Source of the DNA: a virus | IMG/VR virus record: IMGVR_UViG_3300037246_000990 | Location: 1-64,000 of that record | Reading direction: 5' to 3' (one strand) | DNA length: 64,000 bases | Part shown: in pieces, positions 2,682 through 44,888 of the stretch | How positions within the stretch are numbered: position 1 is the stretch's first letter | How the letters are laid out: each line of letters opens with the position of its first letter | Made by a program: the position numbers and the translations under genes | Notes under the pieces: model-generated | Told to the model about the DNA's origin: nothing | The model's database searches: none | Seen by the model: the letters and a program-made list of their open reading frames with translations, nothing else

Positions 2682-4891
2682 TGTTCCTCACCTCCACCGC
2701 CACCGCCGCCTCTAGCCATTTCCGCTTGCATCATTTGCATTTGCATGATTTCTTGCTGTCGTTCCTCAGCCATCTGCTTATACAGATCCACCAACGACAA
2801 GAGCATCAACTGCTGCTCCTCGTTGAGATTGTGGAAACCGTCTGACTTCATCTCTTCCACGAACATACCGTACAGGATGAACGGGTCGTCTTCAGGCATC
2901 GGGACGATCATCTCGTATGCTTCCTGTCGGATCCAGGCCATGATACGCTTACCGCGCGACACGTCTGCACCCTGCGGGATGAAAGCGTCTTCGTAGCCCA
3001 TCTCCTCAAGGATCTTCGCCTGCAACCCAGGCGGCAGACCTTGTAGACCAGCCGAGTACTGGATCAGCTCGATGGCCTTAGCCTGCTTCGCTTCCTTACT
3101 CGACAGCGCCATAGAGGCCGTGTCGATGTGGACAATGACGTTGTCCGTGAGGTCAGCTCCACTGAAGCTAAGAATAGCTAGAGTACTGGACTTGTCACGC
3201 GCCAGAATCCGTAGTCTCTCTGCATATCTGTCGTCGTTCCTAATATGCTTGATCACTTCTTGAAGTATGATCGAGCCTTCCTTCTGCAAGGCTTCGTCCC
3301 ACTCCTGTAGAATAGAGGAACGCCCAGCCAGGGCCTGTTTCCGCAGGATATCAATCATTGCGGCCGAGTTGACACCGGTAGGACGTTGACCTCTCAAAAT
3401 CTCTTCTGTACCAGCGATAGCTTCCATTTCCTGAATCTGTTGCTGGCGCTCTTGCTCAGCCGCAGCCGGGTAGGGCGGCGGATAAATAGGTTCGGGCGCT
3501 GCACCCGCAGTCCTTCGTGGGTCGTACTCCCAGATCTGTCCTGGGACTCCGAGCCACTGATCCTCGACGGGTTGAGACCCCTTCGGAATGACCCACGCAG
3601 ACATCGGGACCGTACGCCGCCACATGATCATCGTGGTGTCAATCGCGTTTACTCTCTTCAACTTCGGAAGGAGTTTACACACCAGCGATCTACCGTTGAT
3701 ACTACCAGCCATCGCTTCCCAGCGATACCGGACATAAGGGTGCCATCGTTCCGGCCAGCGAGGATCATATGCGCGTGCTCCTCGCTTCTTTGGAGAATCA
3801 TAGATCACCTGATCTCCAGCCGTAATTACTGTCCTGCCTCGGGGCCACGTCGCGTTCGGCTTCCTATCGAAGATCCGGACTGTTGTGTAGCCCTCCCAAG
3901 TATCGGGGGAACCTACGTAAAGCGAAGGCCCTGACCCCTCAACCATGTCACCGATCCGCTCCCACCACCAGATCGGGAGGTTACGGGTGTTGGTCGTCTT
4001 TGCCTTCTTCAATCGGTCAAGAAACCAGCCGTCTCTCTTCAGTAGCTTCAGGCCCGGTGCCTTGTATTTATCCTCTAATATGTCTAGGTCTGTGTAATAC
4101 TCACGCATCACCCAGCCCATATCTTCCCCGTTCCACCAGTGGACTTGAGGAAGGTGCATCTCGAAAGGACTCACGATAGTAGCAACGATATCCCCATACT
4201 CCACCTTATCCGTGTAGATGGGTCTCCCACGCTCGTCATGGATCTCTGTCTCTCTGGGTATAGGTAGCTGGATATCACCAGCCCCCACTCCCGGTACGAT
4301 TGAGGATTCAGAGGTCTCAGTCTCTGGAACCGTCATTCGCCTGACATGAGTTTCGTCGTAGATCACCTCCATCCAGCAAACGCCACAGTGGAGGATGATT
4401 CTGGCGACCTCTCTGTGCTTCTCAGGTAGGTTCAGGGCTTCCCACATATACTCCATGGTCAGCTCTGATAGCTGCGCTGCGTCCTCGTCTTCTGCTCTCC
4501 CTGACTTTGAGTCGATTCGAGGGATAGGCTTGTTCTCTGTCAGCAGGGCTATATTCGTTTCGATATAACGACCCAGTAAATCGTTGACGGGCTTCGGGAT
4601 GTTATCTGCCGCTTCCTGCACCACTGATTGTTGACCTGAGCTTGCGTCACTAGTCAGCCGAGATGTGAGGATATCATGAAAGTAGTGACGACCTAGAGAA
4701 AAGAGAAAGTTCTCTACCCACTGGACAGCTCGCACCCAAAGGCGGCTAGTCCGGTCGGAACTCATTGCGTCTGCGTAGACCGCTATGGCGTGCCCTACCT
4801 TAGGGTCTCCATGAGGGATCGCGTCTATGGTATGAAGCCTGCCTTTTATCCATTGTGAATCAGCAGCGCCTGTAGCTTTTGAGTCAGCCAT
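2678..4891 (-). CDS. portal protein (P22-like)
   Basis: 737 aa; SPFEMH, GRSLVCKLLPKLKRVN, EAIAGTEEILRGQRPTGVNSAAMI and a Q/M-rich C-terminus are typical of large portals. Confidence 0.85.
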   Translation of the reverse strand: MADSKATGAADSQWIKGRLHTIDAIPHGDPKVGHAIAVYADAMSSDRTSRLWVRAVQWVENFLFSLGRHYFHDILTSRLTSDASSGQQSVVQEAADNIPKPVNDLLGRYIETNIALLTENKPIPRIDSKSGRAEDEDAAQLSELTMEYMWEALNLPEKHREVARIILHCGVCWMEVIYDETHVRRMTVPETETSESSIVPGVGAGDIQLPIPRETEIHDERGRPIYTDKVEYGDIVATIVSPFEMHLPQVHWWNGEDMGWVMREYYTDLDILEDKYKAPGLKLLKRDGWFLDRLKKAKTTNTRNLPIWWWERIGDMVEGSGPSLYVGSPDTWEGYTTVRIFDRKPNATWPRGRTVITAGDQVIYDSPKKRGARAYDPRWPERWHPYVRYRWEAMAGSINGRSLVCKLLPKLKRVNAIDTTMIMWRRTVPMSAWVIPKGSQPVEDQWLGVPGQIWEYDPRRTAGAAPEPIYPPPYPAAAEQERQQQIQEMEAIAGTEEILRGQRPTGVNSAAMIDILRKQALAGRSSILQEWDEALQKEGSIILQEVIKHIRNDDRYAERLRILARDKSSTLAILSFSGADLTDNVIVHIDTASMALSSKEAKQAKAIELIQYSAGLQGLPPGLQAKILEEMGYEDAFIPQGADVSRGKRIMAWIRQEAYEMIVPMPEDDPFILYGMFVEEMKSDGFHNLNEEQQLMLLSLVDLYKQMAEERQQEIMQMQMMQAEMARGGGGGGGEEQ

Positions 4892-5583: not shown

Positions 5584-5731
5584 GCGTTGAGGCTACTCTT
5601 GCTCCTTCTTGGACGCCTGCTTCTCGATGAGGCGTTGGAGCTTGATGAGCAGGCTGGCGTGAGCCACGCTCTCGTTGCCTGTGAGCTGTGCCCTTGTGAG
5701 GAAATAGCTCAGTTGCTGTAGTTCCTTTAGA

Positions 5732-10300: not shown

Positions 10301-11494
10301 TCTACTGGATTTGAGGTCGTTTTGGACGTGTAGGTTTTGGTTCTCATCAAAGTAACCGGCCAAGGCACCGTCAGTAGCGAACCCAAGCTGATCAGCCGCA
10401 GGTTGAAACAGCCCCGTGTCGGAGTCAGGGAAGAAGAAAATGTCAGGGGCAGCAGCGTTACCGTCCGCTACAATCTGAAGGTTCTTAGGCAGGTACACAC
10501 GGTCAGTGAGCGCACGCAGGACAGCGTCCCCACCGGACACCAGCGCCAAGTCATCAGAGGCTAACCGGGTAACTCCAGTGTCTGTGTCTCCAGAGAAGGA
10601 TACTGTAGGCGCACCCTCAGACCCGTCAGCATGGAGGAGGGCCCCGGACATGGAGTCTCCGGACTTCTTGACGTATAGGGCAGAGTTGAAGATCTCCCCC
10701 CTAAGGTTGAGGAGGGTCTCGTTGGAGCGCCCACTACCTGTCAGGTAGAAGTGGTCTACGTTGACCTTGAGGACGTGTGTGCCGCGGGCTGTGTAGCTGT
10801 CATCGGAATGAGCGACTACAATGCCGTAGAACTCAACGATCTGGGAGGTGGACTTGAGCGTGATCGAGTCAGCCCCAATCGTGAACTCCATATTCTCGCC
10901 AGCGGTGATGCCTTTGAACGGAAGGATAACCCCGTCTTTGGTTTTGACAAGAGAGGTTCCGCCATCACTCCTAGCGGTATTAGCCTCCGCAGTGCTAGTG
11001 AGGGTGAGGTCGAGACTGTTCTCTGCCACAGCCAGTACGCCGGTGGCCTTGATGGTTCTGAACTGTAGGTCCACACCTGTCTTCTGTTTGAAGACCTCGG
11101 CTCCGGTTCCTACGTTACTTGCAGTGGTGGGGGTGGTTTGCTGGGTTACCTGTCCGTCGTCGCCAACTGCCCACACTGTGTACCAGTGGGGTGCCTGCTC
11201 GGTCCCAGGGGGAACATTGGCTTGGATCTCAAGGGTGTCGGTGTCTTTGTTCCAGAAGTGGCGGATCTTATTGTGGAAGCCGTCTTCACCCAGCTCCCAC
11301 GCCTGTAACGCTGTCTTCTCTACGTCGTCCAGAGTAGAGAAGTCGCCATCCGAGTCAAGGCCTGCGCCACGAACGAGCGGAGCGAGCGCAGCCATGTCGT
11401 GGCGTATCTCCCCCCATTGTTGGTTGAGCGGTCGGCCGTAATCAGGCCACGGAGCATAGAACTCGACTTGGGTTGTGGTGTCGTTACCGGCCAT
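7343..11494 (-). CDS. tail fibre / long virion fibre protein
   Basis: 1383 aa G/A/T/D-rich; four DG..AP...F..D.DTG repeats and three N.G.G..VF..K....L.F[RK] repeats typical of fibres. Confidence 0.8.
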   Translation of the reverse strand: MAGNDTTTQVEFYAPWPDYGRPLNQQWGEIRHDMAALAPLVRGAGLDSDGDFSTLDDVEKTALQAWELGEDGFHNKIRHFWNKDTDTLEIQANVPPGTEQAPHWYTVWAVGDDGQVTQQTTPTTASNVGTGAEVFKQKTGVDLQFRTIKATGVLAVAENSLDLTLTSTAEANTARSDGGTSLVKTKDGVILPFKGITAGENMEFTIGADSITLKSTSQIVEFYGIVVAHSDDSYTARGTHVLKVNVDHFYLTGSGRSNETLLNLRGEIFNSALYVKKSGDSMSGALLHADGSEGAPTVSFSGDTDTGVTRLASDDLALVSGGDAVLRALTDRVYLPKNLQIVADGNAAAPDIFFFPDSDTGLFQPAADQLGFATDGALAGYFDENQNLHVQNDLKSSRVEAGLGLFYSQVYIGDGKVDVPSFAFNNEKGTGVYRSGAAQFSYSIQGTKRLQIASNNIIFGTQIWANTAGLVGAPDYSFDNDATSGMYQRLGSGTDRGNVAFAAGGVQVARIHSGSPFRPEEAYKWQFNYDIIADDGIVVANDLKAGRVEAGIGSFYTALDVDGNATVNFAIFAAENEDVFSQFGGTPAAPTPSDAVDTLVARKERITGTGSRRALLAITEINADLALANPRQNYGANIFVATGENYTVSSDRETVPGALTGNRVSARHKAAGTIAMAGGVSSEAEITGGNEEGVITLGYAYLDEGGDGGIETGEITEYRGLWVKASTGNVLAKFGIYIDSLINGGNTTAILIEDQPNGPAISFFSDIVGPDNGLNWGLTADTNLYRSATSTLKTDGAFVVSEDAYSGSWDSNSSVPTKNAVYDKIQSIEQFYAVTFRESEAGGAVYQTDTFTVDSAAFYLSTGGDGKPLLSPKGNIIRTDTHQGIANLLHLNDGGLSDDEALGMTVASDGATITLTITNAGANKAATAPLEIQFEGQNYTYTPSGGAETLTLTAGTATVPKENFVVFELIGGVPTLVTSTTDWPSGAPGAQHARLCTVVVQDVTSVQTHGALKIHAWTDHIEEIQGAGSGERGERGHLHSIAERLRNEPAVWRSGSAITVDNSGTTDPLYVHIAKGTGYQMHRHSSPALDTDGSDLIFVVNDDTTPYTTIDQLNALENYATDGEGSIGNSAKFTVVLWMVVNENSGDTKLFLNLPTGGYNTVNAAKTDSDSKAVHGIPQAYVGTSILLYELVLGRSGGGNTWTVEDTVDLRGVPGVAVGGGGAATTGEVNAAANIGAGIGVFAQKTNEVLEFKSFMSKGASIALASDATSVTIDATGSFYMPVTVEGADAKLTVGSGEVGNDSVTSYHRDGDLVWTVGVDHSANEFVITSGAMGSEHNEINLAVDKVGFFNAVPVSKPSITVGDAAEILAALVSLGLVSDDIP

Positions 11495-12733: not shown

Positions 12734-13513
12734 ATGAAATACGTAGGCAGACCCAACACCGTCAGAACCAAAGAGTCCCTCTACAGGAACTGGATCAAGC
12801 CTTATCTGGCAGCGGACGGCTCCAACCTAGACAACACCATAGCTATTTGGGAACGTTCACTACAACCCGGCACAGTGAAGTCGCTTCTTTACTTGGCGAA
12901 AGAGGAAGTTCCGGGGCTAGACATCAAGGATCACGTAAGCCGCATAGGACGTTCGAAACAGCAGCTTCCACCCAAAGCCCTTACTCGTCCTGAGATCGTC
13001 GCTCTCAGCGCCAGTATCAAAGCCGAGAGCCCTTTGTACCTCCCGTTCCACATAGGCATCAACACTGGCATGCGCCGTGGAGAGGTGTTCGGGCTCCAGC
13101 ACAAAGACGTCGATATGCTTCGGAATCGTATTTTAGTACAACGGTCTTTTTCTGGCCCGACCAAGTCCGGGAAAAGCCGTTATGTTCCAATAAGTTCCGC
13201 GCTTGAGAAAGTCTTGGTTGCAGAAGTATTCTCCAAAAGCTATAATAGATCACGGGGAAAGAAACGAACTGGATCTTTGATCCCGTCAATCTTTGACCCG
13301 GGCCCGTTATTGAAGCGGTTCTGTAAGGAGGCTGGTATCAGGGAGATAACGTTTCATTCGCTAAGGCATTCCTGGGCGACTCTTGCTCTAGAGGCAGGAC
13401 GCAGCCCTGTACTTGTGTCTAAGGCCCTAGGCCATAGTAAGGTGAGCACAACGCTTGATTGCTACTGGAATACCAGCTCAGAGACTCTAGACATGGGGTT
13501 TCTGGATGAGTAG
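12734..13513 (+). CDS. tyrosine recombinase/integrase
   Basis: TGMRRGE (R), TKSGK (K), HSLRH, LGH, TTLDCY (Y) catalytic set; no obvious arm-binding domain. Confidence 0.92.
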   Translation: MKYVGRPNTVRTKESLYRNWIKPYLAADGSNLDNTIAIWERSLQPGTVKSLLYLAKEEVPGLDIKDHVSRIGRSKQQLPPKALTRPEIVALSASIKAESPLYLPFHIGINTGMRRGEVFGLQHKDVDMLRNRILVQRSFSGPTKSGKSRYVPISSALEKVLVAEVFSKSYNRSRGKKRTGSLIPSIFDPGPLLKRFCKEAGIREITFHSLRHSWATLALEAGRSPVLVSKALGHSKVSTTLDCYWNTSSETLDMGFLDE

Positions 13514-33138: not shown

Positions 33139-33212
33139 TGGAGCTAATAGTAGGGATCGGACCCACATCATCGAAGTACAAAACCGAGGCTCTACCATTG
33201 AGCTATATTGGC
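33139..33212 (-). tRNA. tRNA-Thr(UGU), degenerate
   Basis: GCCAATA-TAGCTCAATGGTAGAGC...TTTGTAC loop...GTGGGTCCGATCCCTAC-TATTAGC-T-CCA; mismatches in acceptor and anticodon stems; T-loop TCC instead of TTC. Confidence 0.75.
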
Positions 33213-38536: not shown

Positions 38537-38832
38537 CTAAAGACGAATGCGAAGTCAAGCTCGAAATGGGCGATTGGATGATAGCGAAGTTCTATGCATC
38601 GAGCGTACACTTCATGTACCACCGATGTCATATTGATAAAGTGTCGTATTACGCAGCGATGTTCCACGAACTGGCGTTCTCTCCAAGAGCAGGATGCTCC
38701 AACCCCTGCTGGGCCTGTGCTGGTTGTGGAGCCTCGGTTCCAGAGGAGCTGGAAACCGTGTATCTACTGCTCGAATCAGAGTACGCGTACGACATCATGC
38801 AAAAGCACCAAAACACCTTAAATAACACCTAA
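38533..38832 (+). CDS. HxC...CxxC family protein
   Basis: GDWMI, YHRC, CAGCGASVPEELETV. Confidence 0.75.
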   Translation: MTKDECEVKLEMGDWMIAKFYASSVHFMYHRCHIDKVSYYAAMFHELAFSPRAGCSNPCWACAGCGASVPEELETVYLLLESEYAYDIMQKHQNTLNNT

Positions 38833-39354
38833 ATCAGGCCATTTTCGGGGTCTGATACCCGAGTCCCGACTCAACCCAGTCAAGAGATTCGTAAGAAACA
38901 ACATAGACTTACCATAAATACCTCTAGTACCACCAAGAACCACCATGTGTATATTATAACCCCCATTCCGGCCCTCTAGACCTCCTGTCCTCTGGTCTTG
39001 GGTGTTATAACACCAAGGAATAAGACTAACTACACGTAAATAAAGGCATTATTGCGAATGACAGGTACGATTCTAGCACATAAAGAGCAAAAAGGGTCTA
39101 AAACTACACAGATTCAGCTAATCCCGCGATCTAGTTGGATATATTAAGCTGATGGCAAGACCAACAGACCCACCCCCCCTTAAAAACAGTAGTAGGTACC
39201 TCTATGCTGTAACTCCCTGGCATTGAAGCACTATATCTGTAACCCCACGTCCTTGCTCGGGTATTATCAGTAGAAAACAAGGTCACTATACGGTGTCAGT
39301 CTCAGCCCTCCGAGGGGAAGCTATTTAGTATGGACCGGAGGCAAGTCGGCGGCG

Positions 39355-39367
39355 TAAGTAGTTGATT
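39355..39367 (-). promoter_or_regulatory. IHF consensus site
   Basis: AATCAACTACTTA matches WATCAANNNNTTR. Confidence 0.45.
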
Positions 39368-39378
39368 TTATTGACGTT

Positions 39379-39407
39379 TTGACTTTCTCGACCGGATGTG
39401 CGACACT
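39379..39407 (+). promoter_or_regulatory. sigma70 promoter with extended -10
   Basis: TTGACT-N17-GACACT with TG at the extended -10 position. Confidence 0.55.
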
Positions 39408-39470
39408 TGAAAAGTCGAGCGGCGGACAATCCGCTGCTACGGTAAACTAAACCCGACATCAGAGAACCAA

Positions 39471-39722
39471 ATGTACAGACTCAGCAAACGACCCAGCCCG
39501 ATGACCATGTTTGTCAGTGCTTGCGACACGGTGAGACGCCAAGAGGCCAAAATCGACGTACAATGTCGCAAACTGGAGGGTCTAAAGGCCTTGGTCCTGG
39601 CCCAAGAGCATAGGATCGAGATAGCAGAGCGCAAGAAGCGACACCTTGAGAAACTCCGGTGGGACAGAGAGCTAATGCTTGGCTTCACTAAAGCCGAGAA
39701 AAAGATCACAACTAGGGCATAA
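39471..39722 (+). CDS. hypothetical protein
   Basis: 83 aa, first gene after the promoter. Confidence 0.5.
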   Translation: MYRLSKRPSPMTMFVSACDTVRRQEAKIDVQCRKLEGLKALVLAQEHRIEIAERKKRHLEKLRWDRELMLGFTKAEKKITTRA

Positions 39723-39751
39723 TGCCCCAGTCACGTAGGAAGGAGAACACC

Positions 39752-40048
39752 ATGACCAAGACACAACTGAAGGCAGCAAAGGCGGAACTCAAACGGATCA
39801 ATGACTTCATCGCAAAGCACGAACTCGGCGCCGGAGGGTTCGAAATCACAGAGAACGTGGTGAACACCAAGGCCCACGGTGAACGCTACGTGTTCGTGAA
39901 GCTCGACAAGGACGACTTGAAGCTGCGTAAGCAGCTCAAGGGTATTCGCTACGGTGAGCAGGGGCGAGGTAAGGCACGCTGGAACCGCGAAGCGATGCTC
40001 TGGAGCATCAAGGCATCGGCGCTCGATGGCACCGTGTTCGGGTCGTAG
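39752..40048 (+). CDS. basic early protein, paralogue of 43088..43474
   Basis: KAELKRIN.FI...IRYG..GRGKARWN....WSI; AGGAG RBS. Confidence 0.7.
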   Translation: MTKTQLKAAKAELKRINDFIAKHELGAGGFEITENVVNTKAHGERYVFVKLDKDDLKLRKQLKGIRYGEQGRGKARWNREAMLWSIKASALDGTVFGS

Positions 40049-40137
40049 CGTGGAGATCCTAGTCTGTCTGATAGTCGTCATGGTACTGTACCTATGCCTT
40101 CGTGACGGCTGCTAAAGCTGATCTGGCAGCATAGTAA

Positions 40138-40198
40138 CATAGCTCAAAGGCACAAAGGGTACCATTAACGACCTTTGTAGCCTTTGGTCTATGATGCA
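40138..40198 (+). repeat. 61-nt structured hairpin element, copy 1
   Basis: identical to 40737..40797; CATAG/CTATG, CAAAGGC/GCCTTTG, ACAAAGG/CCTTTGT stems. Confidence 0.9.
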
Positions 40199-40226
40199 TA
40201 CCGCATTGTAGCCACAAGAGGGTATT

Positions 40227-40439
40227 ATGAAATACATAACAAAGCCGGAAAAGGCCGAGGCTGAAGTGACGACAAAGACCACCGACGAGGGTGTGAACGT
40301 GATCATCAATGGGTGCGTTGTGTTGGCGTTCAAGAATGGCGACGACAGAGTGCAGCTCATCAAAGGTGTCAGTGAGGCCAGGACAGGGCTTCGGACGGAC
40401 AATGTTGGGCTTGTCTTTGTCAACGTGTGTGCTGAGTAG
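40227..40439 (+). CDS. hypothetical protein
   Basis: 70 aa, GAGGG RBS after the hairpin. Confidence 0.6.
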   Translation: MKYITKPEKAEAEVTTKTTDEGVNVIINGCVVLAFKNGDDRVQLIKGVSEARTGLRTDNVGLVFVNVCAE

Positions 40440-40471
40440 GAGAGCGAAGCTCTCCCCAAGGCCACAAGAGG
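40436..40471 (+). repeat. stop-overlapping hairpin + CAAGGCCACAAGAGG element, copy 1
   Basis: near-identical to 41071..41105. Confidence 0.85.
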
Positions 40472-40486
40472 CTCGAATGACGTTAT

Positions 40487-40586
40487 CATAGCTCAATGGC
40501 GCAAGGCTCGGTGCCCTCAACGAAGCAGGGTCCGGGAGCCTATAACGGCAAACCGAAAGGGGCCTTGTTGCCATTGGTCTATGCTG
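40487..40586 (+). repeat. hairpin element, expanded variant
   Basis: same outer stem (CATAGCTCAATGGC...GCCATTGGTCTATG) with a larger internal insert. Confidence 0.8.
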
Positions 40587-40590
40587 TGTT

Positions 40591-40613
40591 GGTACTAGGA
40601 GTATTTACTGTAA
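40591..40613 (+). promoter_or_regulatory. GTACTAGGRGTATTTACTGT motif, copy 1
   Basis: repeated at 41131 and 42549; inverted variant at 38908-38931. Confidence 0.7.
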
Positions 40614-40736
40614 TTCTTTGCCTTTATTCGAGGTTCAACCATGATATTGAAATGTCCTAAGTGCGGCAAGACAGTGAAAACGTGGTGGTCGGCTGTCGTA
40701 GGGTGCCTAAGGTGCAGACCACTGACCATTGGGTAG

Positions 40737-40797
40737 CATAGCTCAAAGGCACAAAGGGTACCATTAACGACCTTTGTAGCCTTTGGTCTATGATGCA
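40737..40797 (+). repeat. 61-nt structured hairpin element, copy 2
   Basis: identical to 40138..40198. Confidence 0.9.
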
Positions 40798-40825
40798 CTG
40801 GGTATCATAGTCACAGGAGTGTCAA

Positions 40826-41074
40826 ATGAAAGTTCATATGGTAGTCCGCATAGATAGCTATGGTGTCACAATCATCGGGCCATTCAAAGACCGCGAAGCA
40901 GCCAAGCAGTATCAGGAGCGCAGAGTCAAGCTTCTGAGAGAGGAAGAGGTCAAAGGGATAAGTCTTCGAGGGGGAGTGGCGTTCCTCATCAATACGGTCA
41001 ACGAGCCCATAGAATCACTGATGGTCGAAGAGGCCAAAGCCAAGACCTGTGGCTGCTGTGAGCACGGGAAGTAG
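40826..41074 (+). CDS. hypothetical protein with C-terminal CxCC motif
   Basis: 82 aa, AGGAG RBS, ends TCGCCEHGK. Confidence 0.6.
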   Translation: MKVHMVVRIDSYGVTIIGPFKDREAAKQYQERRVKLLREEEVKGISLRGGVAFLINTVNEPIESLMVEEAKAKTCGCCEHGK

Positions 41075-41105
41075 GAGAGCGTAGTTCTCCCAAGGCCACA
41101 AGAGG
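41071..41105 (+). repeat. stop-overlapping hairpin + CAAGGCCACAAGAGG element, copy 2
   Basis: near-identical to 40436..40471. Confidence 0.85.
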
Positions 41106-41130
41106 ACTAGAGATCAAGAGGGTAGGTCTT

Positions 41131-41151
41131 GGTACTAGGGGTATTTACTGT
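41131..41151 (+). promoter_or_regulatory. GTACTAGGRGTATTTACTGT motif, copy 2
   Basis: intergenic, upstream of CTTTGACATAGGAGAC RBS. Confidence 0.7.
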
Positions 41152-41193
41152 GAGTTGGGTATTTTCTTTGGATTCTTTGACATAGGAGACGAC

Positions 41194-42539
41194 ATGCGAA
41201 GAAGCAAAGGTTCAGGGCTCAACAACCTTGAACTGATGGTAGACGCTGGTATGCCCTTGAAGAAGGCGCTTCAAGACGCCGACGCTCAGATTGAGTGGGC
41301 TCAAAACATATACCCCGAGGTCGTGTCATTCCGTTGGTATCGGAGGTTGCATGGCCTTCGAGCGGGTATCATCAGGTCATTGAAGGTTGAAGGGAGGTAG
41401 TATGATCTCAAACATCGAGATGCGAAGGGACACATTAAAGCTGGTAGCTGAGAAGCTACAACGAATCGACCTGGTGGAGGCTGCCATGGACATAGTAGCC
41501 TTCAAGCTGGCAGCAAGGGCCATGATGGTCGAGCTGGAGCTGGACAGAGGGCTCAGTAAGGGACAGGGGCAGCGATGTGGGTCTTAGTCATACAAGGTGA
41601 CTGTGGCGTTGCTGTCTGTAACCCACCAACAGGTAGCATTCTTGCAACGAAGGTGATCGGTCCTTTTCGCACTGAACTGGGAGCGATGCAGCATTGTGAT
41701 AAGTTTTACAGTGGGCTCACCTCCGAGGACAATGTGATTCAGGCTACGGTGATGTTTGCTGATAGCCCTGAAGAACTGACTGTGAACTAGGAGGTGCGTA
41801 TGCTGTTGACTGAGGTAATCTCTGAGGTGATAGCTGAGTACCCCAAGGGTGACTGGTGCTTCTTGGTTGGTGAGATCATGCGTCGAACGGAAGGGATCCA
41901 TGAACCTTGGATAGTAATGGCTGGACTCGAACGACAAGGGAGGACGATGACAAAGGCAGAGTACGAGGAACATAGGCGTAGGTACGACAATGGTTGTAAG
42001 TGCTGTCCTCAAGAGATATAACAGGAGACACGATGAGCGAGAAATACAAGTCTTGTAAGAAGGCCGTATACCAACACGGAGAAGTCATGTTCATCGAACC
42101 TATGCCAGCAATAGAAGCTGAGCGCATAGTTAGATCCCTAAGAGAGAGATGGCCTGGGTGGTGGGTGGACTGGCACTACGCCGCAGGGAGAGCGGTGTTT
42201 AAGAAGCTTCGCAAACCGTGGTGGCTACGAATCTTCTGTGGTCGCAACATGAACGATGACTAAGGAGACCCAATGAAGCAGGGAACAACGCATACCTGTC
42301 ACCCGCACATGGGGACTGGCTGGTACCTTGGTGGCCCTGAAGGGGACATCATGGGCATGATGGAGATGAAAGGCTCCAGTAGTGCGCTCGGCCTCGTACC
42401 CACTGCATGGATACAGTACCCTGGGTACTCCGCTGAGTTGATGACAGGCTTTGAAGGACTCGTGAAAATGACTTTGAAGGCGGCAGATAAGGTTGACATG
42501 GTGGTGGACATGACAGTGGACTCAATACACAGGAGCTAG
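41194..42539 (+). other. run of about six small coupled hypothetical genes
   Basis: ORFs ending 41400, 41587, 41790, 42021, 42263, 42539 with GGAG RBSs. Confidence 0.55.
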
Positions 42540-42548
42540 GTAGCCTCT

Positions 42549-42570
42549 GTACTAGGGGTATTTACTGTAA
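42549..42570 (+). promoter_or_regulatory. GTACTAGGRGTATTTACTGT motif, copy 3
   Basis: intergenic, upstream of CTTTGCCATAGGAGAC RBS. Confidence 0.7.
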
Positions 42571-42678
42571 GTTTGTTGCTTTTCCTTTGCCATAGGAGAC
42601 TCGAATGATCGTTTTCATCTGTGTTGTCGTGGTTCTAGGTGTGACCAGTGCTGCCTCGTTGTGGTGGGGCTCTGAGGC

Positions 42679-42918
42679 ATGACAACTCAGTACGTTATCT
42701 CAGCGCTGTTCACACTGGGTGACTGGTGTATCAGCAGCGACCCAACGGCACTACCTCGACACTATGCAGCTCATCGCTGTCCTGGTAAACACACGTACAC
42801 AACATGGGCTTGGGCTGTACCAGACTCTAGATTTAACAGGTTCGTGTGTTACTACTGCCATGAGTCTGTGCCTGATGAGATACAAGGGCTACTGGTCTTG
42901 CTCTCATCAAAGATATAA
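42679..42918 (+). CDS. HxC...CxxC family protein
   Basis: LFTLGDWCI, AHRC, CYYCHESVPDEIQGL. Confidence 0.8.
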   Translation: MTTQYVISALFTLGDWCISSDPTALPRHYAAHRCPGKHTYTTWAWAVPDSRFNRFVCYYCHESVPDEIQGLLVLLSSKI

Positions 42919-42926
42919 CGGGTGAG

Positions 42927-42955
42927 TTGACAACCTGCTCGATTTGTGTCATAAT
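42927..42955 (+). promoter_or_regulatory. strong sigma70 promoter
   Basis: TTGACA-N17-CATAAT with extended TG. Confidence 0.75.
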
Positions 42956-43087
42956 GTGGGGCAGATCGACCGGCAGATTCATTGAGGTGTGTGTCTCAAT
43001 GGATGTGTTGGTCAATGAGGTCAGCACACTGAGGGTTAGCTTGGTGGGCATAGTGCCACACTGAGAGGCCCTCAATAGGAGAATCAA

Positions 43088-43474
43088 ATGCCCAAGAAGA
43101 TGAGCGTCAAAGAAATGAAAGCCGAACTCAAACGACTCAATGCCTTCATCGGCAGCGAGCAAGGCTCGAAGTCCGAAGGGAATTTCGGACGAGTCATCGG
43201 ATACCGGAACGACAAGAACAGCGACGAGTACGGTACTGAGTACACGTTCATGGAGTTCGTGGACGCCAACGACGTGCCTCTCGGTTCCCCTCGGGGCAAC
43301 TCGGAGGCCGAAGAGGTGCTGAAGGCGATTAAGAAGATCCGCTTCGGCAAGAACAAGCGAGGAAAGGCACGGTTCAACAAGAAGGCCGGTGCTTGGAGCA
43401 TCCAGACCGAGCACGTCCCGTCTTTCGTAACGATGGGTACCAAGAACAAGGCGGGTAAGTTCACAGCCAAGTAG
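43088..43474 (+). CDS. basic early protein, paralogue of 39752..40048
   Basis: KAELKRLNAFI...IRFGKNKRGKARFN....WSI. Confidence 0.75.
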   Translation: MPKKMSVKEMKAELKRLNAFIGSEQGSKSEGNFGRVIGYRNDKNSDEYGTEYTFMEFVDANDVPLGSPRGNSEAEEVLKAIKKIRFGKNKRGKARFNKKAGAWSIQTEHVPSFVTMGTKNKAGKFTAK

Positions 43475-43484
43475 CATAGATGTA

Positions 43485-43561
43485 GCAGGAGTTAGTTTAA
43501 CAAGGTAAAACAGTGGGTTGTGGCCCCGCCGAAGTGGGTTCGAGTCCTACACTCCTGACCA
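43485..43561 (+). tRNA. tRNA-His(GUG)
   Basis: acceptor CAGGAGT/ACTCCTG, anticodon arm GTGGG-TTGTGGC-CCCGC, GTTCGAGT T-loop, encoded CCA; G at -1 and A73. Confidence 0.9.
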
Positions 43562-43567
43562 CAGTTC

Positions 43568-43628
43568 GATAGCTCAATGGCACAGAGGGTACCATCAGCG
43601 ACCTCTGGAGCCATTGGCCTATGGTGCA
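43568..43628 (+). repeat. hairpin element, covariant copy directly after tRNA-His
   Basis: compensatory changes relative to copies 1 and 2. Confidence 0.85.
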
Positions 43629-44128
43629 TGAGGTGCCATGTAGAGGAGACAACATGAAACAAATAGAACGAATGTGGTTCAAGAAGGCTCTGAGACTGGC
43701 AACCAGAGGCCCCAAGGGTAGCAAGGGTGTCTGGGTGTACTTGGAGAACGACAAGAGGCCGACGCTGGTGCATCCGAACTACAGCCTGTCCCGAGGGCTG
43801 ATCCAGGGGAGGTGGTAGTGAGGGTTGCGATGGCGTTGTTCATAGCGATGGTCGCTGGGTTTTTCTACCTTGCGATGTCGTTCGACATCTCAGAGTACCG
43901 AAGCACTGACCTACCGCAAGGGGTGTTCCCTTGCGAGCTGTTGTAGCATGGAGGTAGCATGGAGTATTATGTACTGCTGGTCAAGGTGGCAACGGGAGCC
44001 AACAAGTACCTTGTTGTGTTTCAAGACGACGACACTGGTGCTTTGGTGTTGTATGACAAGTGGGACGATGAGGTAGGTGCCTTGGCGATGGCTGAGTACC
44101 TCAACAGTGGCAAAGGGTAGGAGACACG

Positions 44129-44350
44129 ATGGTAGACCTAGAAGCAGACATCGAAGGCTTGAAGGCTAAGATCGAGGCGCTTCAAAGATCAAAGAGGCGT
44201 ATGATCAAGGCTCACATGGGTCTCATCAAGGAGAACAAACGCAAGAAGAGGCAAGCTAAGAGGCTGGCCCAGATGCTGGAAGCAGGAGAAAATCTCTACG
44301 GTAGCTACGCAGACTGGACAGCGGAGCAGTTCGGAGAGGCACCGAAGTGA
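44129..44350 (+). CDS. coiled-coil hypothetical protein
   Basis: 73 aa, AGGAG RBS. Confidence 0.55.
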   Translation: MVDLEADIEGLKAKIEALQRSKRRMIKAHMGLIKENKRKKRQAKRLAQMLEAGENLYGSYADWTAEQFGEAPK

Positions 44351-44625
44351 CAGCCTCGCCCGCTGCTTTGTTTACTCTGGGTGACTGGAGTATACACACG
44401 GACTCGAACACCGTGGAAGGCCCTAAATTCTACGCAAACCATAAGTGTACGAAGTACAACACGCAGCCAGCAGGCCGGGGTCTGTTGGCTGAGTATGTAA
44501 TGAGTCGGTTTGCGTGGGTCAAGGAGGATGATGGTTTCAAGTGCTATTACTGCCAAAAGCATGTGCCTGATGAGATACAAGGGATGCTGCTGATGTTCTG
44601 GTCGGGTATCAAAGGGAGTCGGTGA
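44347..44625 (+). CDS. HxC...CxxC family protein
   Basis: LFTLGDWSI, YANHKC, CYYCQKHVPDEIQGM. Confidence 0.8.
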   Translation: MTASPAALFTLGDWSIHTDSNTVEGPKFYANHKCTKYNTQPAGRGLLAEYVMSRFAWVKEDDGFKCYYCQKHVPDEIQGMLLMFWSGIKGSR

Positions 44626-44888
44626 TGGCCGAGACTTTGTTTACTCTGGGTGACTGGAGTATCGTGGATAACTATGAAGAAGAGTGCTTTGAGTACTACG
44701 CAAATCATAAGTGTGACCTCAAAGAATACAAGAGGGTACGCAAGCTAACCAACACTGCAGAGGTTAGACCTGGAAGCTATGCTTGGTTCAGCACGGACGA
44801 TCCAAATGTTTGTTACTACTGCTGTGTGCCTGTGCCTGCTGAGATCCAAGGTTTGATGGTGCTGCTCATGGCAGGAGTCAGGAGGTAA
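44622..44888 (+). CDS. HxC...CxxC family protein
   Basis: LFTLGDWSI, YANHKC, CYYCCVPVPAEIQGL. Confidence 0.8.
   Translation: MMAETLFTLGDWSIVDNYEEECFEYYANHKCDLKEYKRVRKLTNTAEVRPGSYAWFSTDDPNVCYYCCVPVPAEIQGLMVLLMAGVRR

Follow-up and report, generated by a model that had tools for sequence, protein, structure and literature searches.

The ribonuclease III (RNase III) sites in the early and late mRNAs of phage T7 (R0.3, R1.1 and others) are hairpins of about two helical turns that lie between the cistrons of polycistronic phage transcripts; there are several in the genome, and several of them adjoin phage promoters. Irregularities of the helix, such as bulges and internal loops, are described as limiting cleavage to one strand, which leaves a protective 3' hairpin on the upstream message (PMC1540722). 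The promoter-early stem-loops (PeSLs) of T4-type phages are described as repeated composite motifs of ~100 nucleotides (nt), with a sigma70-like promoter, an effective terminator stem-loop and a Shine-Dalgarno site, which flank ORFans in plastic early regions, and recombination between copies accounts for insertions, deletions and replacements among close relatives (PMC2839356). The start-associated sequences (SAS) of cluster K mycobacteriophages and their extended form (ESAS) comprise inverted repeats, imperfect and with a spacer of variable length, that lie, all in one orientation, directly 5' of the Shine-Dalgarno motif and start codon of a subset of genes, and their function is still open in these accounts (PMC3203893; PMC12699233). 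Our study describes a repeated intergenic hairpin, found between positions 40138 and 43628 of a 64,000-nt window of the virus record IMGVR_UViG_3300037246_000990. The record is complete, at 119,599 base pairs (bp), and has short terminal repeats at its ends; the window covers its first 64 kb. Within the literature compared, which comprised these three systems and the Racr elements of phages, the hairpin appears to be built like T7 RNase III sites, PeSLs and ESAS/SAS, and to be a member of none.

The comparison was based upon twelve copies aligned from this genome and its relatives. As with the T7 sites, there are several copies per genome, each of about two turns and each between cistrons; in contrast to them, the hairpin has a near-invariant lower stem and shows no sequence or Rfam relation to the T7 sites. 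The PeSL-type trait of flanking ORFans and marking insertion, deletion and replacement junctions is present, whereas a sigma70-like promoter beside the stem-loop is not: three of the twelve copies abut a 21-nt motif that is not sigma70-like, the other nine have no promoter motif, and no copy is followed by a U-run, so that the element is not a PeSL by definition. PeSLs are, moreover, described from T4-type phages, a group to which this phage is not known to belong. An ESAS-like architecture is seen in nine of the twelve copies, and we regard this as resemblance, not homology. The arms here are 19-20 bp and the apex extends to ~100 nt, whereas ESAS are described with 17-bp arms, spacers mostly of 4-13 bp and many more copies (PMC3203893; PMC12699233). 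When the window was searched for the SAS 13-mer, three matches with two mismatches were found, none of them at the hairpins, and 9 of 100 shuffles equalled this result.

Four copies of the hairpin were found in the whole genome, all on the sense strand, using both a loose two-arm regular expression and a covariance model (R1, E<=10), and the remaining R1 matches in the genome were reverse-strand echoes of these four sites. Two 13-mer matches, at 5704 and 20561, were rejected as copies, as they lie in coding sequence and have no partner arm. Copy 1 (40138-40198, + strand) and copy 2 (40737-40797, +) are identical over 61 nt. Copy 3 (43568-43628, +) is a variant with 17 of 19 positions paired, and an expanded copy (40487-40587, +) carries the common lower stem beneath a branched apical insert of ~41 nt, which makes it 41 nt longer than the others. 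These findings reproduce what a sequence-only reading of the window had claimed, namely two identical 61-nt copies, one variant and one copy with an apical insert of about 40 nt. The hairpin fold that it proposed also holds, since each copy folds in this way and does so better than shuffles of itself, with z scores of -5.1, -3.8, -2.4 and -3.3 for the four copies (200 dinucleotide shuffles each) and with 0, 0, 8 and 0 of the 200 shuffles folding equally well.

The hairpin family as found comprises twelve copies in about four lineages, derived from at least five sequence sources. The alignment (A3) contains the four copies of the window, four from G001, which is a related complete IMG/VR phage of 119,470 bp, and four from metagenome contigs (one each from L030 and L020 and two from L035). 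In its consensus, termed here hairpin 1, a 5-bp base is followed by a C·U mismatch and by an 8-bp lower stem whose first pair is a conserved U·G; above these come a bulged base on the 3' side, an upper stem of 6-7 bp and a loop of ~13 nt. Copy 1 has the same base, mismatch and lower stem, with an A as the bulged base, 7 bp in the upper stem and 13 nt in the loop. Across the base and lower stem, 17 of 28 columns are invariant and seven further columns are at least 90% conserved. The contigs L030 and L020 can be aligned to this genome over only 338 of 9242 nt and 148 of 1032 nt, respectively, yet the lower stem is unchanged in both. The apex, on the other hand, ranges from 4 to ~100 nt. Inserts of 40-60 nt in three of the twelve copies either extend the helix to as much as ~30 bp or form small arms capped by GAAA or UUCG, and in one G001 copy a C(UUCG)G tetraloop substitutes for the whole upper stem.

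The helix is conserved and real across the copies. Its 19 pairs were formed in 96.4% of cells, compared to 20-55% when one strand was slid by 1-3 columns. All 19 positions are paired in eight of the twelve copies and 15-18 in three more, while the short copy is paired at 11 of the 19 and forms 13 bp and a UUCG loop in its own fold. Changes on both sides were seen in five pairs (17 cells), and the covariation score was reached by none of 500 shuffles and the number of doubly changed pairs by 7 of 500. One lower-stem pair varies between A-U, U-A, G-C and G·U, and two upper-stem pairs vary between A-U and G-C. The compensatory stem changes reported beforehand were recovered among these, as A-U/U-A at alignment pair 15-91 and as the two upper-stem exchanges, the third of the examples given containing a single A·G mismatch, in copy 3.

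Nine of the twelve copies lie between an upstream stop codon and a downstream Shine-Dalgarno site and start codon, and a second hairpin of 9 bp (hairpin 2) is present in exactly these nine, which do not abut the promoter-like motif. At least eight of its nine positions are paired in eight of the nine copies and five of nine in the L030 copy, and in eight of the nine a gap of 2-4 nt separates its end from the Shine-Dalgarno site downstream. In the window, hairpin 2 of copy 1 (40189-40211, +) has a 5-nt loop and uses the 3' strand of the hairpin 1 base as its 5' arm; that of copy 2 (40788-40810, +) is paired at 9/9 positions; and that of copy 3 (43619-43643, +) shows compensatory changes relative to the other two, including an A-U to G-C exchange. 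Downstream of each come a Shine-Dalgarno site and the ATG of an ORFan, of 70 amino acids (aa) at 40227, of 82 aa at 40826 and of 54 aa at 43654. The distances from hairpin 1 to these start codons, 28, 28 and 25 nt, agree with the 25-30 nt stated previously. On the upstream side, copy 1 comes after a 108-aa gene (39722-40048) and copy 2 directly follows the stop codon of a 31-aa zinc-ribbon-like open reading frame (ORF; 40641-40736). Five nucleotides are common to hairpin 2 and the base of hairpin 1, and predicted minimum-energy folds of 105-130-nt constructs contain either the full hairpin 1 base or hairpin 2, depending upon the copy, so by these predictions the two are close competitors.

The remaining three copies (the expanded copy of the window, G001 a and L035 a) are separated by 4-10 nt from the 21-nt promoter-like motif that follows them. 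In the expanded copy this motif (40591-40611, +) begins 4 nt downstream and stands in place of hairpin 2. It also occurs at 41131-41151 and 42548-42568 (+) and at 38911-38931 (-), and these four are its only occurrences in the 119.6-kb genome; all lie at 38.9-42.6 kb, within the 3.7 kb where the divergent early region starts. A leader of 35-45 nt separates the motif from the Shine-Dalgarno site. It is not sigma70-like and may be a phage-specific promoter or the site of a regulator. In G001 a and L035 a, the hairpin loop resembles the first half of the motif, with the second half lying 3' of the hairpin. At the 5' side of the expanded copy, a Shine-Dalgarno site and ATG (40477-40491) open a mini-ORF of four codons with its stop codon inside the 5' base of the hairpin, and this is probably the scar of a cassette fusion.

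Relative to the flanking ORFs, all twelve copies are in sense orientation. The cells of hairpin 1 include 22 G·U wobbles compared to a single A·C mismatch, and those of hairpin 2, in the nine copies carrying it, include 15 compared to two. As G·U pairs become mismatches on the opposite strand, the fold is good only on the gene-sense strand. Folding in the transcript is favoured by the wobble bias together with the apical UUCG and GAAA loops and the association with a ribosome-binding site, and a folded + DNA strand would also be compatible with the bias.

Comparison of related genomes revealed that the copies are located at rearrangement breakpoints. In G001, the counterpart of the left flank of copy 1 precedes copy a and that of its right flank comes after copy b; the G001 segment between a and b, which holds the 21-nt motif and a small membrane ORF, sits at 42545-42680 in this genome, where it is without a hairpin. 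Copy 3 forms the left edge of a ~1.8-kb block that is placed elsewhere in G001. A segment of ~635 nt (40456-41090), with the hairpins at 40487 and 40737 and two ORFans, is missing from G001; it is flanked by two terminator-like hairpins of 7 bp with an identical tail of 16-17 nt and no U-run (40439-40471, repeated at 41074-41105, +), each lying immediately after an ORFan stop codon. In both G001 and L035, the 43654 ORF has a hairpin-free orthologue. The copies are thus independent of particular genes, and crossover points fall at them, as has been described for the PeSLs of T4-type phages (PMC2839356). Unitigs (Logan) from the source DNA run break within both identical copies, at 40167-40169 and 40766-40768, and the unitig between them has a depth of 44.7, compared to 66.2 and 52.9 on its flanks, with one low-depth (3) joint; this dip could reflect a sub-population in which the segment is deleted, or only assembly noise.

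The same comparison bears on the tRNA-His gene (43486-43561, +), which was previously said to end 6 nt before copy 3, and does. It lies within a segment of ~89 nt, between the 128-aa gene (43088-43474) and copy 3, that is missing from G001, where the 128-aa gene joins the hairpin directly. As G001 has the same junction of gene and hairpin without the tRNA, the proximity is incidental, and we treat the tRNA as context and not as part of the element. The 9-nt 5' edge of the hairpin recurs just before tRNA-His and a 5-nt variant of it just after (43471-43572), and the tRNA therefore looks to have been inserted at the hairpin edge, or else deleted in G001.

Taken together, these observations suggest a portable intercistronic RNA module that is cut, or protects a 3' end, by way of an RNase III-class enzyme, and that is incidentally a crossover patch for cassettes; we put this forward tentatively, as the reading that we favour over the others, although not yet a probable one. 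The module would lie in the sense strand of polycistronic early transcripts, and hairpin 1, with its helix of about two turns, near-invariant lower stem and free apex, would be the site of recognition and cleavage for host RNase III or for a functionally equivalent double-strand-specific endoribonuclease. Cleavage would part the cistrons, so that the upstream one would retain a protective 3' hairpin and the downstream one would begin with a short leader made up of hairpin 2 and the Shine-Dalgarno site. Copies that end a transcription unit, before the 21-nt motif, would have only a 3'-protective or attenuating role. Because the same 60-100 nt recur between ORFan cassettes, they also provide homology patches for the deletion, insertion and movement of these cassettes. 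We infer transcription, cleavage, the identity of the enzyme and any effect on mRNA stability or translation from the features of the DNA.

This reading is consistent with the geometry of RNase III substrates, as 19 pairs and one mismatch approximate two turns and the helix is intercistronic and on the sense strand in all twelve copies. A minimal RNase III substrate of 34 nt is described (PMC1540722), with which the short copy of 45 nt would be compatible. The expanded copies would form long, nearly perfect duplexes, which any RNase III should cut. Placement also fits, as copies with a stop codon before them and a ribosome-binding site after them suit the separation of cistrons and those at the end of a unit suit a protective 3' hairpin. 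A sequence-only reading had offered RNase III-like processing sites, as in T7, alongside small decoy RNAs and folded single-stranded DNA recombination sites; the geometry fits the first of these, the decoy gained no support and the recombination site is disfavoured.

Several points weigh against an RNase III site. The T7 sites have a larger, asymmetric internal loop, where the present hairpin has a 1x1 mismatch and a 1-nt bulge, and copy b of G001 has a fully paired lower stem without the bulge. RNase III needs little sequence specificity, and cleavage by it does not explain the near-invariant lower stem, the C·U mismatch or the U·G pair; the pattern of lower-stem conservation fits better with a sequence-specific protein. 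A search of the phage genome with Ribonucleas_3_3 gave no RNase III match, and the runs containing this DNA comprised a single DNA run, with no RNA run listed. Mosaic junctions are produced by any repeated sequence and are uninformative on RNA function. Finally, the twelve rows share descent within ~4 phage lineages, and the shuffle statistics overstate their independence.

The conservation of the lower stem leads to the main alternative, that of an operator, in which a sequence-specific RNA-binding protein of phage or host would bind the lower stem with its mismatch and bulge, hairpin 2 would act as a switch, and translation of the downstream gene or read-through into delayed-early genes would be controlled. 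We consider such an operator rather unlikely, although the near-invariant lower stem below a free apex is what it would predict, and the five nucleotides shared by the hairpin 1 base and hairpin 2, with predicted folds that alternate by copy, and the 2-4 nt that separate hairpin 2 from the Shine-Dalgarno site in eight of nine copies would all suit a switch. A gene of a basic 97-128-aa family is immediately upstream of the hairpin in four of six cases, and to take this family as the binder of the lower stem is a guess. However, no candidate binder was found: the 128-aa protein has no match in Pfam, PHROGs or NCBIfam, and its structural model (predicted local distance difference test, pLDDT, 79.4) has no fold match in the PDB at E<=0.001. 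Furthermore, three of the twelve copies have neither hairpin 2 nor the Shine-Dalgarno site, and the hairpin is not bound to its gene, as seen from the hairpin-free orthologues of the 43654 ORF. A wider version, in which a regulatory RNA-protein pair, possibly involving the 97-128-aa family, flips the competition between the hairpin 1 base and hairpin 2 and so times the ORFan cassettes, with the modules doubling as crossover sites, we judge to be unlikely, and so too an integron-like form of it that would operate on single-stranded DNA.

A terminator or attenuator, forming part of a PeSL-like promoter-terminator cassette that would carry expression signals of its own, and stopping or damping transcription from upstream, is improbable. 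It would account for the three copies directly 5' of the 21-nt promoter-like motif, and the copies flank ORFans at insertion and deletion junctions in a mosaic early region, as PeSLs are described to do (PMC2839356). Nevertheless, a terminator scan of 38800-43900 returned six sites, none of them at hairpin copies, and a U-run follows no copy. The nine copies that precede a Shine-Dalgarno site and start codon without a promoter motif present a further difficulty, as efficient termination at such a position would shut off the gene downstream, and a separate terminator-like hairpin is already present 3' of two ORFs. A sigma70 scan found no site in or beside the hairpin copies.

That the hairpin is a selfish or neutral palindromic repeat of the MITE or REP kind, or a by-product of recombination, with no role for the phage, is likewise not a probable explanation. 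Two copies are 100% identical in one genome, presence and absence differ at orthologous sites between relatives, the tRNA-His insertion is flanked by a duplication of the 5' edge, and the hairpin occurs in phages that can otherwise barely be aligned, all of which count in favour of a mobile or neutral repeat. Such a repeat would not, however, be expected to keep a strictly sense orientation (12/12), to show a wobble asymmetry that favours one strand, to retain its pairing through double changes or to be followed by a conserved hairpin 2 and Shine-Dalgarno site; moreover, a genome has no more than four copies, and a transposase is lacking.

Integron attC sites have a conserved, imperfectly paired base with an extrahelical base and a variable terminal structure, lie between small cassettes and are defined by the R''/R' core consensus RYYYAAC / GTTRRRY. 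On this model the hairpin, folded in single-stranded DNA or as a cruciform, would be a recombination site at which a tyrosine recombinase, for example the product of the gene at 12734-13513, moves ORFan cassettes, which we regard as very unlikely. The conserved imperfect base with its extrahelical base, the apex of 4 to ~100 nt, the position of copies between small cassettes and at rearrangement junctions, and the G·T bias, which also fits the folding of one DNA strand, are all in keeping with it, and a tyrosine recombinase is encoded in the genome. In contrast to attC sites, the three distinct window copies contain no attC core-site words and no integron-type integrase is nearby. The recombinase is a generic tyrosine integrase that scored 58.8 bits against the 265-bit TIGR02249 cut-off for integron integrases, and it is encoded 27 kb away. 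The RNA-type UUCG and GAAA tetraloops, together with the tight coupling of hairpin 2, Shine-Dalgarno site and start codon, are RNA-level features.

The weakest explanation is a small decoy RNA that mimics a host CRISPR repeat, as an RNA anti-CRISPR, or a tRNA arm; CRISPR repeat hairpins are shorter than the 13-20-bp stem seen here. It is extremely improbable, for although lone repeat-like hairpins between phage genes have been named Racrs (PMC10651486) and 12 nt are identical to a tRNA D-arm, matches to the lower-stem pattern were found at four loci in 185,579 species genomes, one per locus and none in an array, and neither ARAGORN nor the Rfam tRNA model found a tRNA-like fold in the hairpin or an additional tRNA. 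The identity of 12 nt with the D-arm of tRNA-Thr (gene at 33139-33212 on the minus strand), which had been pointed out at the outset, is real; in a post hoc test, only 2 of 2000 mononucleotide shuffles of the hairpins had a word of that length in common with either tRNA.

Searches for relatives and for known families gave a narrow distribution. The exact hairpin pattern was found in IMG/VR in G001 only, and a pattern of the 3' half gave six loci, of which two were in G001 and four others had no R1 match. Queries of IMG/VR with the terminase, the 128-aa protein and a six-sequence alignment of its family returned G001 or nothing. A metagenome pattern scan yielded 22 loci, five of which belong to the family (L020, L030, L033, L035 and L036); L033 and L036 are 98-100% identical to G001 and were not given separate alignment rows. 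The 17 other metagenome loci were rejected, since their contexts are unrelated, only the bases fixed by the pattern match and they score 13-21 bits with R1, and the four prokaryote loci, at 12.5-26.5 bits, were rejected as derived from the pattern. An unrelated hairpin of ~37 nt with the same lower-stem words was seen in soil metagenomes (L022, L024-L026, L028, L031, L032, L034, L037, L038 and L040); it has its own C/T-G/A covariation, is present in two copies 835 nt apart in L024 and adjoins IS21-like transposase genes in L037. INPHARED phages contained no match by megablast of 6 kb, tblastn of the terminase or blastn (word size 11) of the 99-nt module. A comparison with Rfam had been proposed as the check on novelty, and the element is absent from that database: at the gathering score only the two tRNAs match, and at E<=10 the sole extra match in 39900-43800 is a chance microRNA of 16.7 bits on the other strand. 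A self-cleaving ribozyme was also rejected, as the helix is almost fully paired and has neither conserved internal loops nor an Rfam match.

The phage itself encodes a P22-like portal, a T4-type large terminase, a tyrosine integrase and a helicase, and had no match to a cultured phage by DNA or by terminase protein. The single public run containing this DNA is labelled as a marine sediment metagenome. To the right of ~39 kb, dozens of small genes are encoded on the + strand, and those beside the hairpins had no family match in Pfam, PHROGs or NCBIfam. A search for a phage-type RNA polymerase gave no match in the genome, but as the same search was also silent in every control genome, this result carries no information. 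Basic paralogues of 97-128 aa with an invariant GKAR...WS motif, which as a group match no protein family, are encoded at 39722-40048 and 43088-43474 of the window, at 4033-4419, 10306-10599 and 10883-11257 of L017 and at 185-571 of L035. Upstream of the 128-aa gene there is a strong sigma70-type promoter at 42927-42955 (TTGACA, 17 nt, CATAAT, with an upstream TG), separated from the gene by a leader of ~130 nt with internal inverted repeats; the region 42927-43087 is 82% identical in G001. Three small Cys-rich ORFs (42679-42918, 44347-44625 and 44622-44888) are paralogous to one another, and copies of them are also found in L035 and L030.

In summary, the reach of the hairpin is narrow, with about four lineages found, which limits its general importance. 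The early regions of uncultivated phages are packed with ORFans, and little is known of how these are expressed and exchanged. The current study adds a compact, covariation-supported module that appears to supply RNA structure and a ribosome-binding context to whichever gene follows it, and that marks sites of past cassette exchange. If the hairpin is a processing site, it would extend the T7 paradigm to an unrelated phage lineage from marine sediment and would provide a natural intercistronic insulator part, and if it is read by a specific protein, it would represent a new RNA-protein regulatory pair.

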